Shown: piece after piece, positions 18,180-51,986 of the stretch
Layout of the letters: each line of letters begins with the position of its first letter
How positions within the stretch are numbered: position 1 is the stretch's first letter
Assembly: GCA_051313645.2 (NCBI GenBank)
Contig: JBNRSN020000017.1
Location: 9,238,001 to 9,302,000 of the forward strand
Origin: Centroscyllium fabricii
Taxonomy: Eukaryota
Length of the DNA: 64,000 nt
Direction: 5' to 3'
Made by a program: the position numbers and the translations under genes
The notes under the pieces: model-generated
Told to the model about the DNA's origin: nothing
The model's input: the letters and a program-made list of their open reading frames with translations, nothing else
Database searches by the model: none

Positions 18180-18719
18180 TGAAGCTTCGGTGGCGCATGC
18201 ACAGAGCATTCAAAATGGCTGCCGCGAAATATTGAATGCTCTGCGCATGTGCCGCCGGTACCGGAAAGGTGATTTTTGGCCCAAGGGTCGGGTGGAACTC
18301 AAGATGCACTCGATTCTGCTGCCCATGGCGGATCAGGGAGCGGGCTGTACGGCTCCAGCGGGCCTGAGGCTCAATGCACGGCTCACGTGACGCCACCGCA
18401 CGCCAGCTTCGGAACGCGGTGACGTCCGCACGCAGCAGACTCCGGCAGCGATGGCAGAGCCGGGCCGAGCTCTGGCTGTACCGTGCCCTGCGAAAGGCAG
18501 CTGGCACAACAGTTCATCTTCTGGGCCTGGGATTCACCATCGGCATCGGGGTGGTCACTAAGCCAGGATCCAGTGAGCATCTGTTCGGTGAAAGGGAATC
18601 CCAGCCCCGACGGTGGCCATTTTCAATTGTCTGCGCATGCGCCGGGCAGTCGGGAAAATCTGTGCCAGACGTCTGAAGCTGCCGGTTTTTCGGGTACTGG
18701 ATTAATGGTGCTCAACCTG
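18180..18719. mobile_element. Tigger/pogo-like MITE, copy 1, left end missing
   Basis: Right TIR GGATTAATGGTGCTCAACCTG followed by TA; left subterminal region matches copy 3 from about 51114. Confidence 0.8.
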
Positions 18720-19094
18720 TATAAGTGTGTGTCACACATACAGGAACAAACACTACCAGAATCTGATGTGTGTGAGAATTGCTGTTGTATTTGTATTTGA
18801 TCTCTCGCACTATTGCAGGGAGTGAAACAGCATATTTGTGCTTGGTTACCAGCTATTTGCTTTGTCAAGCTCGTTTCATTTCTGAATTTGCATAGGAGGA
18901 TCAAATTGGGATCCTGAGCCAATTCCAAATAGGAATTTTCTATGGTTTTAGGAGTTTCCTCTTGCACTTTGGATTTTTAAAATCAGTGGCATATAATGGT
19001 CCAAATTGATACGGAACGCAGGCTATCTTTGTGAAGCTGCTGTTCTGTGCTTGACATGTGGGGAAAACCATGACTGAAAACTTAATTGGGTATT

Positions 19095-20212
19095 CATAAG
19101 AACATACATTAGATGCAGGAGCAGGAATAGGTCATTTGACCCCTCAAGCCTGCTCCGCCGTTGAGTAAGATCATGGCTGATCTGATCTTTGCCTCAACTG
19201 CACGTCCCTGCCCGCTTCCCCATAACCCACCAGTCCCTTACCTTTCAAAAATCTGTCTATCTTCACCTTAAATATATTCAATGACCCGGCCTTCACAGCT
19301 CCCTGGGGAAGAGAATTCCCAAGATTTACGACCCTTTGAGAAGAAATTCCTCCTCATTTTCGATTTAAATGGGTGCCCCCTTATTCTGAAACTGTGCCCC
19401 CGAGTTCTCGATTTCCCCACGAGGGGAAACATCCTCTCTGCATCTACCTTGTCGAGCCCCCTCAGTATCTTTTATGTTTCAATAAGATCACCTCTCATTC
19501 TTCTAAACTCCAATGAGTATCGGCCCAACCTGCTCAACCTTTCTTCATAAGACAACCCCCCTCATCTCCAGAATTAACCTTGTGAACCTTCTCTGAACTG
19601 CCTCCAATGCAAGTACTCTGTGTATCCTTCCTTAAATAAAGAGACCAAAACAGTACGCTGTACTCTCGGTGTGGCCGTACCAACGCCCTGTACAGTTGTA
19701 ACAGGACTTCCCTATTTTTACTCCATTCCCTTTGCAACAAAGGCCAACATTCCATTTGCCGTCCTGTTGTAATTACTTGCTGTACCTGCATGCTACCTTT
19801 TTGTGATTCATGTACATGGACCCCCCGATCCCTCTACCTCAGCATTTTGTATTCTCCCTCCATTTCAATAATTTGCTTTTTTATTTTTCCTACCAAAGTG
19901 GATAACCTCGCATTTTCCCACATTAAACTCCCATCTGTCAGATTTTTCCCATTCACTTGGCCTATCTATATCCCTTTGGAGATGCTTTGCCTTTCCACTT
20001 ATCTTTGTATCATCAGCAAATTTGGCAACATTACACTCAGTCCCTTCATCAAAGTCATTAATATAGCTTATGTATAGTTGAGGCCCCAGCACTGATCCCT
20101 GCTAGTTACAGTTTGCCAACCTGAAAATGACCCATTTATCCCAACTCTGTTTTTGTCAATTAGCCAATCTTCTATTCATGCTAATATATTACCCCCAACC
20201 CCATGAGCTCTT
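19095..20212 (-). mobile_element. CR1 LINE fragment, decayed
   Basis: VAKFADDTK and LLQLYRALVRPH motifs; CR1 tail. Confidence 0.9.
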
Positions 20213-48936: not shown

Positions 48937-49645
48937 AGACTAGATTACTTTGGGATTTGGAACATTGGGATAAAGTAACCAAAAGCCAAAGCAGATTAGA
49001 ATGTTACCGTGCCCTAAAAAGAGATTATAAATTGGCAGACTATCTCTCAACTGTCAGAAATATAAAGCAGAGACAGACCCTCACCAGGTACAGACTAAGT
49101 GACCACCAGTTGGCAGTCGAAAAAGGAAGACAGAAGAAATCCTGGCAGCCAAGAGAAAATAGAATATGCGGTCACTGTTTGACAGATGAGGTTGAAACAG
49201 AGGTGCACTTCCAAATAAAATGCAAAAAATTCGACAAAACAAGGAAAACATAATTTGACAAATTAAGCTTGGCAATCTCAGATTTCAAAGAACTAGATGA
49301 TATATCAAAACTAAGAATAATCCTTGGTGAGGGAAATAGGGCACAGCTTGGTGCACAATACGTAACAGCATGCCACAACCTGAGAGACAGTGAATGACCA
49401 ACATGCACACACGCACAGAGACTAATCAACACTAATTATTATACTATTTGTAATTGCAAGAACGTGTAGCAACCGATAAAAGGTTACAGATGTATTGTGT
49501 GTGTATATTATATAAATATATATATATATATTAATATATATTTTATTTATTTATAATAAATATATATATATACACACATACATACACAACATAGGGATGT
49601 ATCCTGTCATGCCAATAAAGTTTTTTAAATTGTAAATTGAAAAAT
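48937..49645 (+). mobile_element. RTE-X-like non-LTR element 3' end (C-terminal CCHC domain and tail)
   Basis: LTRYRLSDHQLAVEKGR...RICGHCLTDEVETEVHFQIKC; tail GCCAATAAAG followed by AATTG-type repeats. Confidence 0.75.
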
Positions 49646-51042
49646 TGACTAGGCATTCAACTGGCAACGAGGAGACGGATGGTCCTGCAGCAATGGGAGT
49701 TGAAATAAGCGGGAAATTGAACGATTTCTGCCTTTCCCCAATTCCATCCCCTAATAGCTCCGAGATAAAGTCCCACCATCTGTCTGAGTGATACAAGACA
49801 GGAAAAAAAGTTGCATTGTTGTAGCACCTCATCACGGTCACGCCTCAGGAACTCCTCAAAGTGATTCACACACACACAATAAATGACATTGAAATGCAGA
49901 AATGATTGTTATGGAGGCAGCTGTCCTGTGCACAGTTTGCATTTTGTTCACTAACGGAAATGAGATAAATAACCAGTTAGTCTTTACTGATGCTGGTTGA
50001 GGGAAGAACATTGGCCAGCACACCGGGAGAACTCCCCCCCCCCCCCCCCCATTTACTGGTGTTCCGATGTGTTCAGCAAATCGCCTGTGCCACCAGAACA
50101 GGCGGTCGAGGGCCTGGGTTTAACATATCAGGAAATGCACCACTTTCTCAGCACTGGACAGGCTCAAAATCCGGGTACAGAGCAAACACTGCAGCATGGT
50201 GCCAGGGTCTGTACCGAGTTAGCCCATTTCAGCCCTCGCACCCCCGATTGGGAGCCTGGAAAATCAGCCAGGATCCTGCTCCTGAATGTTACGCAGCGAC
50301 ACCTACTAGTTAATATGTGCTGTGCTTGCATGTTGTTATCTAATCACTTGAGGGCCCCCTGATGGGAGTAAGCACATTGTAGAAATTACACGCCAATGTC
50401 TCCTCTTGTATTACCTTTGTTCCAGAGGGTCTGGAAACAACAATTTTTAAAAGCAATTAGTTATTGACAGACACAGAATTAAATAGATTATACAGCACAG
50501 AAACAGGCCATTCAGCCCAACTAGTCTGTGGTGTTTATATTCCACACAAGTCTCCTCCCATTCCATCTCAGTTTTTCAGCATATCTTTCTACTCACTTTT
50601 CTCTCATGAACTCATCTAGTTTCCTTTTGAAAGCATCCAAGCTATTTGCCTGAACCACTTCCTGCAGTAGTGAGTTCCACATTCTAACCACTCAAAGTAA
50701 AGACATTTCTCCTTATTTCTCGATTGGATTTTTTAGTAACTATCTTGTATTTATGGCCCCTAGTTTTGGATTCTCCCAAAAGTGGAAACATTCTCTCCAC
50801 ATCCACCCTGTCCAACCCATTCATAATTTTAAAGACCTCCATCAGATCTCCTTTAAGTCTTCTCTTTTCTAAAGAAAAATGTCCCAACCTGTTCAATCTT
50901 TCCCGATAGCTGTAATCTCTCAGTTATGGTACCATCCTCGTAAATCTTTCTCCAGTGCTATGTACGTTTTCTAGAATGGAGACCAGAACTGTGCACAGTA
51001 CACAGAAGTGCGGCCTGACCGGGGTCCTATACAAGTTTAATA

Positions 51043-51986
51043 CAGATTGAGCACCGTTAACCCGGCATGGGCGGGACCAGGCCCGTGCCAGGAAAGTGAA
51101 AATCCCGAACGATTGAAGCTTCGGCGAGCGCATGCGCAGACCATTCAAAATGGCCACCGCGAAAGGTCGGCGGCCATTTTGAGTGCTCTGCGCATGCGCT
51201 TATCGTTCGGTAAGGCTCGGAGAGGCGCGGTAAGGCCTGGCTTGGGGAGCCCCGGCTCAGGAAGGCTCGGTAAGCCAAGGCAAGGCCTGGCTCGGGAAGG
51301 CTCGGTAAACACAGTAACACAGAAGATAGGAGCAGGAGTTGGCCTTTCGGCCCTTCGCGCCTGCTCCGCCATTTTGATGAGATCATGGCTGATCATCCAA
51401 ACCCAGCACCCCCCTCCTACCCTCTCCCCATATCCCCCGACACCCCCAACTCTAAGAACTATATCTCACACACTTGCTCATGGGCAATTTTTAGTATCTC
51501 CAATTCACCTAACCTGCATGTCTTTGGGTGGTGGGAGGGAACCGGAGTACCCGGAGGAAACCCACACGAACACGGGGAGAACATGCAAACCCCACGCAGA
51601 GCGGTCTCGAGCCAAGCAGGATTCGAACCCAGGAGCTCCTTATTGCGAGGCAGCAGTGCTAACCAATGCGCCGCCGTATCGTGGCGCAGTGGTAGGCGAG
51701 GCAAGGCCCGGCTCGGTAAGGCAAGGCCTGGCTCGGGAAGGCGAGGCGAGCCCCGGCTTGGAAAGGCGCAGTCCGGGATCGTTCGGCAGCGCATGCGCAG
51801 ATTAAAAACTTCACGGCGGTCATGGTGAATGATCTGCGCATGCGCTCGCCGGCACATGCGCAGATCATTCACTGAAGCATCAATCACAGCAGCCATTTTG
51901 CGCATGCGCAGGGCAGTCGGGGCAATTTGTTCCAGAAGACTGAAGCTGCCGGATTATTGGGTAATGGATTAACGGTGCACAACCTG
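51043..51986. mobile_element. Tigger/pogo-like MITE, copy 3, inserted in a CR1 and containing a V-SINE
   Basis: TIRs CAGATTGAGCACCGTTAA and TTAACGGTGCACAACCTG; TA target duplication. Confidence 0.88.
51308..51677 (-). mobile_element. V-SINE of a divergent subfamily, inside the MITE
   Basis: V-domain and CR1 tail with a different linker. Confidence 0.85.

Follow-up and report, generated by a model that had tools for sequence, protein, structure and literature searches.

A family of miniature inverted-repeat elements in Centroscyllium fabricii that very probably captured and amplified pieces of host genes

A 64-kb stretch of the Centroscyllium fabricii genome (contig JBNRSN020000017.1, positions 9,238,001 to 9,302,000; here called the window) contains three copies of a family of miniature inverted-repeat transposable elements (MITEs) with common terminal inverted repeats (TIRs), similar subterminal arms, and different middles. 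We consider it very probable that this nonautonomous cut-and-paste family copied pieces of host genes between its arms and then spread the loaded versions to likely thousands of sites, where they have been decaying. The elements have TIRs next to TA, are dispersed, and decay neutrally, and parental loci without arms are present in the same genome. The middle of copy 1 (core 1, or core A) corresponds to the promoter, coding exon 1, and start of intron 1 of CYB561D2, and the subfamily of this copy falls under the definition of a Pack-TIR.

Core A and the start of CYB561D2

Core A comprises approximately 200 bp of promoter and 5' untranslated region (5'UTR), followed by coding exon 1 and the first 40 bp of intron 1. 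The consensus of subfamily A has a 41-codon frame up to a GTGAGT splice donor, which reads GTGAGC in copy 1 and GTGAGT in the parent. Promoter motifs in copy 1 are CACGTG (18384-18389) and a decayed TGACGTCA (18420-18427). The parent was located at G000:C1156:5726377-5726003(-). This locus matches consensus positions 146 to 507 only (338/375, 90%) and has neither arms nor TIR. The captured exon matched four proteins in the database (E values from 5e-8 to 7e-4), two of which extend into the exon 2 sequence LFSWHP. An exon encoding LFSWHP lies approximately 9.6 kb downstream of the parent (~C1156:5716460) and a PF03188 exon approximately 22.5 kb downstream, both on the same strand. The genome search for PF03188 gave two single-exon matches; the exon downstream of the parent carries a cytochrome b561 domain (E value of 2.4e-26), and the first Atlas match named this last exon "transmembrane reductase CYB561D2" (score of 0.97). 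The gene identity of core A was assigned because a genomic parent with collinear downstream exons was found. A search for longer proteins gave no name at an E value of 1 or less, and Pfam gave none for the four database relatives. We assume D2 rather than D1 on the basis of the automatic Atlas name.

Parent and consensus differ by 6 synonymous changes over 34.7 sites and by 2 nonsynonymous changes over 88.3 sites. Outside CpG, the A copies differ from the consensus at 40/75 nonsynonymous sites' worth versus 11/26 synonymous, and frameshifts were present in 10 of 27 copies. Eight base pairs of the parent are absent from the consensus and retained in one older copy. The synonymous excess in the parent, the neutral drift of the copies, and the retained 8 bp therefore indicate flow from gene to transposon, followed by neutral decay. 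We see next to no chance that the direction was the reverse, with host genes taking their first exons from the MITE. An identity of about 90% by itself gives no direction, but the parents lack arm and TIR, their exons are homologous to the N termini of proteins from other organisms, and such an exaptation would be needed independently in two unrelated genes; the parental synonymous excess and the neutral drift of the copies also speak against it. Horizontal transfer was considered with regard to the 6 synonymous differences, which are small numbers, and was set aside; cores B and E (see below) are present together with their arms in contigs of other organisms.

Copy number, subfamilies, and the three window copies

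An exact 20-mer composed of TA and the TIR had 51,600 matches in the 7.2-Gb genome, and its reversed control had none. In 460 kb of contiguous DNA unselected for the element, 16 ends were found by a strict pattern, or 11 elements by combined counts; a rough extrapolation from this DNA suggests a family of ~10^5 elements. Sampling of the first 100 end matches on contig C1, which is biased to intact ends, yielded 79 elements, 68 of them two ended. The middles of these 68 complete elements formed 12 clusters, namely, 8 that were multimember or common to a window copy and 4 singletons. By type, 23 elements fell in a cluster dominated by arm-like tandem sequence, 14 were of a short type, 24 made up a single cargo lineage with four size classes, 2 were of type E, 1 was of type A, and 4 were singletons. 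With 12 clusters for 68 middles, captures were few in kind and each was amplified many times, and the routine cargo swapping with very high diversity proposed in the initial annotation was an overstatement.

Each of the three window middles marks an amplified subfamily. Searches with core 1 and core 2 (core B) returned 4,972 and 2,216 candidates, respectively, which are not copy numbers, and two more cores from the C1 sample returned 428 and 3,718. All 39 other scored places matched core 1 at 88 to 92% over nearly the whole length, so that this core, previously described as unique, is repeated; for core 2, 39/39 matched at 93 to 95%. Both TIRs were present in 27/29 loci of subfamily A, 37/38 of subfamily B, and 15/15 of subfamily E, with TA flanking each end in 23 of those 27, 31/37, and 11/15, respectively. 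The internal segment is thus bordered on both sides by TIR-element sequence at the A and B loci, and the copies are scattered over many contigs with differing flanks, as multicopy Pack-TIRs are after transposition following capture. For core A, the segment is host sequence that does not derive from a transposable element (TE), and its parent is not flanked by a TIR element.

In a tree built from element ends (168 columns, midpoint root, some forks weak), the three window types occupy separate groups, cargo-free elements group with A, and the captures of CYB561D2, CENPW, and C2orf69 fall in three different end lineages. Loci L239 and L112 are cargo-free relatives of subfamily A. A related element family with the TIR CAGGTCCGGCACCG and similar subterminal sequence was observed at L206:1560, L207:3682-4084, and L216:1823.

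Within the window, the TIR motif occurs five times at two or fewer mismatches, compared with 0.37 expected. Coordinates of the copies and their parts are given in Table 1. Copies 2 and 3 carry TIRs at both termini; copy 3 is flanked by TA on each side and copy 2 by TA on the left and CA on the right. Copy 1 has the right TIR alone and kept both inner arms. It matches positions 72 to 615 of the A consensus at 93.6%, and because it begins at position 72, the left TIR and ~71 bp are missing. The shared TIRs, TA flanks, and arms first ascribed to all three copies hold for the arms (73 to 86% identical) and for both ends of copies 2 and 3, but not for the left end of copy 1 or the right flank of copy 2. 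As first described, the middles are mutually dissimilar, since the window cores give no alignment to each other. Elsewhere in the window, a long terminal repeat (LTR)-retroelement-type pol region with long open frames (protease, reverse transcriptase, RNase H, and integrase) lies at 40281-43884 (+), and two adjoining GC-rich 45-bp tandem arrays, one with a GCCATTTT motif resembling the MITE arms, lie at 63328-63710.

Table 1. Positions of the three MITE copies and their parts in the 64-kb window
Feature	Position	Strand	Evidence or remark
Copy 1, 5'-truncated Pack-TIR MITE, subfamily A (full length ~615-626 bp)	18180..18719	+	Right TIR 18706-18719, then TA
Captured CYB561D2 5' region (core 1, core A)	18254..18611	+	85% (318/375) identical to the arm-free parent on C1156
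Captured CYB561D2 coding exon 1, frameshifted by a 2-bp deletion	18451..18572	+	Donor GT 18573-18574
Copy 2, complete MITE, subfamily B (~670 bp)	27767..28430	+	TIRs 27767-27780 and 28417-28430
Core B (core 2), GC-rich, probably foreign sequence, first-exon-like	27922..28187	-	Sequence; multicopy
Copy 3, complete MITE, minisatellite subfamily	51043..51986	+	TA on both sides
Minisatellite GGCTC/GGTAA/GGCGA, left part	51206..51308	+	Alignment with six sampled relatives and L039
Nested SINE-like repeat, one secondary insertion	51309..51694	-	Free copies; absent from six relatives
Minisatellite, right part	51695..51772	+	Alignment with relatives

The middle of copy 3 is not cargo; it consists of an arm-like minisatellite and one nested repeat resembling a short interspersed nuclear element (SINE), with no host segment between the arms. 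Without positions 51309 to 51694, copy 3 is a 558-bp member of the minisatellite subfamily, whose unit resembles the arm motif TTCGGGAAGGCCCGG, a motif that a cargo-free element has as well. The 386-bp insert has a tRNA-like head and a tail like that of a long interspersed nuclear element (LINE); ARAGORN detected no tRNA in the window. The insert is ~71% identical to full free copies in the window and 85 to 90% identical in its tail. There were 114 matches to this repeat away from any TIR in 1.04 Mb, and six relatives of copy 3 do not have it. We presume that it is of the V-SINE/HE1 type. Copy 3 grew as an arm-like motif expanded in tandem, and it took up a single SINE insertion. The pentamer minisatellite originally drawn from 51200 to 51780 is retained in its flanking parts but not in the 386 bp between them. 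Two SINE-tail copies at 58417-58842 form a 185-bp inverted repeat (94% identity, 56-bp spacer).

What applies to copy 3 might be extended to the whole family, so that all middles would be ordinary nested repeats or tandem expansions without any capture of host genes. Such an extension would accommodate the tandem cluster of 23/68 and the free-repeat inserts in the 697-, 716-, 831-, and 849- to 1306-bp types, but it is very unlikely, given that cores A and B had no match away from a TIR in the 1.04 Mb of DNA retrieved ahead of the parents and that A and E have gene parents. This condition, named at the outset as fatal to the capture idea, therefore applies to copy 3 and not to core A.

Core B has a GC content of 62%. 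On the minus strand, it resembles a short noncoding first exon (~28187-28142) followed by a GTAAGG donor at 28141 and the start of an intron. Ten peptides of a near-consensus copy gave no Pfam match. Thirty-nine candidate parents were aligned, 30 as returned and 9 picked because they looked arm free or variant. Each proved to be a MITE copy, a chimera, or a disrupted copy. In contigs from sequencing runs, no loose end leading to an exon 2 or a promoter appeared among the matches listed. Longer ancestral variants of subfamily B exist. From its sequence, core B is likely captured host DNA. Overall, the capture of host gene 5' regions by this TIR family holds for copy 1 (CYB561D2) and for a sister subfamily carrying CENPW, does not hold for copy 3, and is plausible for copy 2, whose parent was not found among these candidates.

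CENPW, C2orf69, and stacked cargos

Core E reads as exon 1 of CENP-W (match to CENP-W in PDB, E value of 3.7e-4). Its arm-free parent (C1:428958824-428958977; 139/154, 90%) is situated 10.7 kb upstream of the sole CENP-W match over the cut-off. Upstream of its ATG, the parent has TGACGTCA and TTTGAA, which we take to be a cyclic AMP response element (CRE) and a cell cycle genes homology region (CHR). A CYB561D2-carrying copy was also observed within intron 1 of CENPW, on the same strand and ~290 bp before exon 2 (G000:C1:428968776-428969358; L278:8776-9358). This copy has kept the 8-bp stretch of the parent, its start is damaged, and its donor is weakened.

In one element, pieces of a C2orf69 exon (53/55 and 43/51 identical) stand at the two core edges with other DNA between them, and the parent was found. 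Comparison of these sequences indicates that the cargo is an internal exon that was later overwritten. When 11 cores were translated in six frames and the resulting 102 peptides were scanned with Pfam, one match reached the cut-off, which was C2orf69; an Ago_Mid match (E value of 0.026) was weak and was dismissed as chance. In L188, new DNA is flanked by both CENPW cargo edges, as read by eye. A further chimeric type has a 400-bp cargo within a deleted core B, and L350 holds a longer (~1 kb) version of that cargo, derivatives of which took up pieces of other repeats and were amplified again. L350 was the best candidate for the parent of the commonest cargo lineage and was rejected as a longer MITE rather than a gene.

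Near-identical subfamilies of 531, 697, 716, 831, and 849 to 1306 bp (L075 to L168) form a stepwise series. The 531-bp element gained 166- and 185-bp pieces of free repeats, singly and jointly, and each version was reamplified; one insert has an 11-bp flanking duplication, and one lies beside a short fold-back. The 531-bp core, for which no parent was found, contains an ATG and a palindrome that we presume to be X-box-like. Distinct cargos to which no parent was assigned were seen in L027:2740-3445, L363, L188:2377-3076, L102:8762-9329, L096/L222-L231, and L149. One of these is AT rich (428 candidates), and the L027 cargo occurs again in L363.

Mechanism, decay, and comparison with known systems

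The palindromic arms fold strongly on themselves and would be likely to cause stalling or breakage when the element is replicated or its excision is repaired. Probably, synthesis then switches template to an open, GC-rich gene start through 3 to 5 bp of microhomology and returns, and a transposase, for which the pogo/Tigger type is a candidate, probably amplified the product in trans. Later captures were placed within earlier cargo and gave rise to stacked chimeras. The cargo-free element L239 folds with a z score of -7.75. The junction overlaps, read by eye, are GCCG (A left), GAAYG (E left), GGA (E right), and ~1 bp (A right), and thus 3/4 are 3 to 5 bp long. [quoted passage not shown]

TA target-site duplication and a short TIR beginning with CAG are features of pogo/Tigger MITEs, and to this extent, the initial Tigger-like assignment is supported. 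Membership is not established because no transposase with the family TIR was found among the 50 DDE_1 places examined. A 2.4-kb family whose TIR is different accounted for most of the genome search for DDE_1, and the TIR of a second family differs as well; the full-length elements have the TIRs CAGGAAACTC.. and CAGGTTCACA.., and both families were rejected as the autonomous partner on this ground. These two Tigger-type families were observed at L172:538-2916, L202, and L205, with a 558-amino-acid open frame in several copies on contig C967. At L181 and L188, MITEs of the present family are inserted within copies of the 2.4-kb element. MITEs usually arise by internal deletion, and the middles could accordingly be deletion derivatives of one long autonomous Tigger. 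The longer ancestral B variants agree with this origin, and the autonomous partner could not be aligned because it was not found, but we regard the explanation as extremely unlikely. Four consensus elements had no match at an E value of <0.01 to the two full-length families, contrary to the alignment of all cores to one Tigger that had been named as a refuting outcome, and a transposase query matched neither the sampled MITE loci nor the window. For A and E, it is refuted by the arm-free parents, as these cores match single host exons with splice donors and downstream exons.

Several points weigh against the capture and amplification of host genes. Besides the 23/68 middles in the arm-like tandem expansion cluster, several others hold pieces of other repeats. 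The Pfam search with the core A exon gave no recognition, and the Pfam match of core E to CENP-W (E value of 0.0023, 18.6 bits) is below the cut-off of 25. Raw counts for E copies show a synonymous excess (18 synonymous, 14 nonsynonymous), mostly traced to two CpG sites. The core B parent was not among all 100 places from one exclusion pattern, 39 loci of which were aligned, nor was it found in the contigs of six runs, X1, X2, X3, X7, and X8 among them; for the commonest cargo lineage, a search gave 174 places, and no parent was seen among the 100 of them that were listed, 30 of which were aligned. No transposase gene with the family TIR was present in the 50 examined of 150 scored DDE_1 places (1,714 candidates). 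The few microhomologies, all of them short, were identified by eye. Since the C2orf69 piece is an internal exon, the 5' bias is based on 2/3 identified parents.

CpG transitions in whole elements exceed non-CpG transitions 4- to 6-fold, compared with 6.3-fold in a control Tigger; the copies were picked by similarity, which lowered all rates. Because the excess is like that of the control, the copies were probably methylated. Each element has 3 to 7 GCGCATGCGC motifs and 1 to 3 AARATGGC motifs in its arms, which we take to be NRF1- and YY1-like, respectively. Functional promoter cargo, which would hold copies in open chromatin, favor transposition, or serve as alternative promoters, is suggested by these motifs and by gene-start cargos at high copy number. 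Two runs that we guess to be RNA have contigs covering the element, which is no proof of transcription, and among bat Helitrons, those with 5' cargo are the more strongly amplified (PMC4224331). We nevertheless find function unlikely, as CpG decay equals that of the control transposon, the coding parts are neutral and frameshifted, and the copy in the CENPW intron lacks the start region and has a weakened donor. A broader proposal, which we find doubtful, is that the family acts as a promoter-capture platform: palindromic arms rich in promoter motifs would steer repair to CpG-island gene starts, cargo would be stacked serially in several arm lineages, and tens of thousands of promoter-exon-donor modules would have been seeded, some of them now alternative first exons.

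For CYB561D2 and CENPW, such copies will be a source of error when exon 1 is annotated, CpG islands are called, and reads are mapped. A single genome that contains parents together with cargo-free relatives, intermediates, and stacked chimeras offers a test bed for TIR capture, including gap filling versus template switching with transposition and the preference for 5' ends. In the literature searched, of which coverage was partial and from which absence from print does not follow, no paper was found that describes TIR elements capturing genes in cartilaginous fish. The following comparisons refer to the accessible parts of the cited papers. The word "shark" is absent from the main text of the animal survey of Tan et al. 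(2021, PMC8277862), whose supplements may list a chimaera case. Tigger has been reported in Chondrichthyes (PMC9219625), and the present elements share with pogo/Tigger elements and their MITEs a short TIR (~18 to 23 bp) starting with CAG and the TA duplication (PMC9219625). The MER6 MITE amplified a captured V-SINE fragment (PMC6887750), and some of the present subfamilies likewise amplified pieces derived from other repeats; the MER6 cargo is TE derived and not genic, whereas genic cargos occur here.

Rice Pack-MULEs (PMC5861414) likewise have common TIR ends, differing GC-rich gene fragments, and parents elsewhere in the genome. They belong, however, to the plant Mutator superfamily and carry very many cargos (more than 1,000 genes, a figure cited in PMC4224331), whereas the family described here has a TA target and combines a small number of cargos with a very high copy number. 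Vesper bat Helitrons (Thomas et al. 2014, PMC4224331) similarly captured promoter, 5'UTR, exon 1, and intron start with a 5' bias and sequential capture, and their NUBPL capture reached about a thousand copies; they are rolling-circle elements without TIRs, in contrast to the TIR element with TA target duplication studied here.

In the survey of animal Pack-TIRs (PMC8277862), Tc1/mariner is one of two main carriers, and TIR gene capture appears as a rare accident of repair that mostly leaves a single copy; 4 of the 370 cases are multicopy, and the frog examples have three and five copies. The present elements agree with those Pack-TIRs in the non-TE host fragment between arms, the distant parent, amplification with separate target sites, junction microhomology, and GC-rich cargo (in their case, the CAPSL 5'UTR). 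In the present family, individual captures yield thousands of search candidates, the cargo comes from several genes, and captures are stacked. This TA-targeting MITE family, with its roughly 10^5 elements, has carried gene starts to what are likely thousands of sites, and the scale of these multicopy Pack-TIRs is like that of the bat Helitrons and far above that of the few-copy animal cases.

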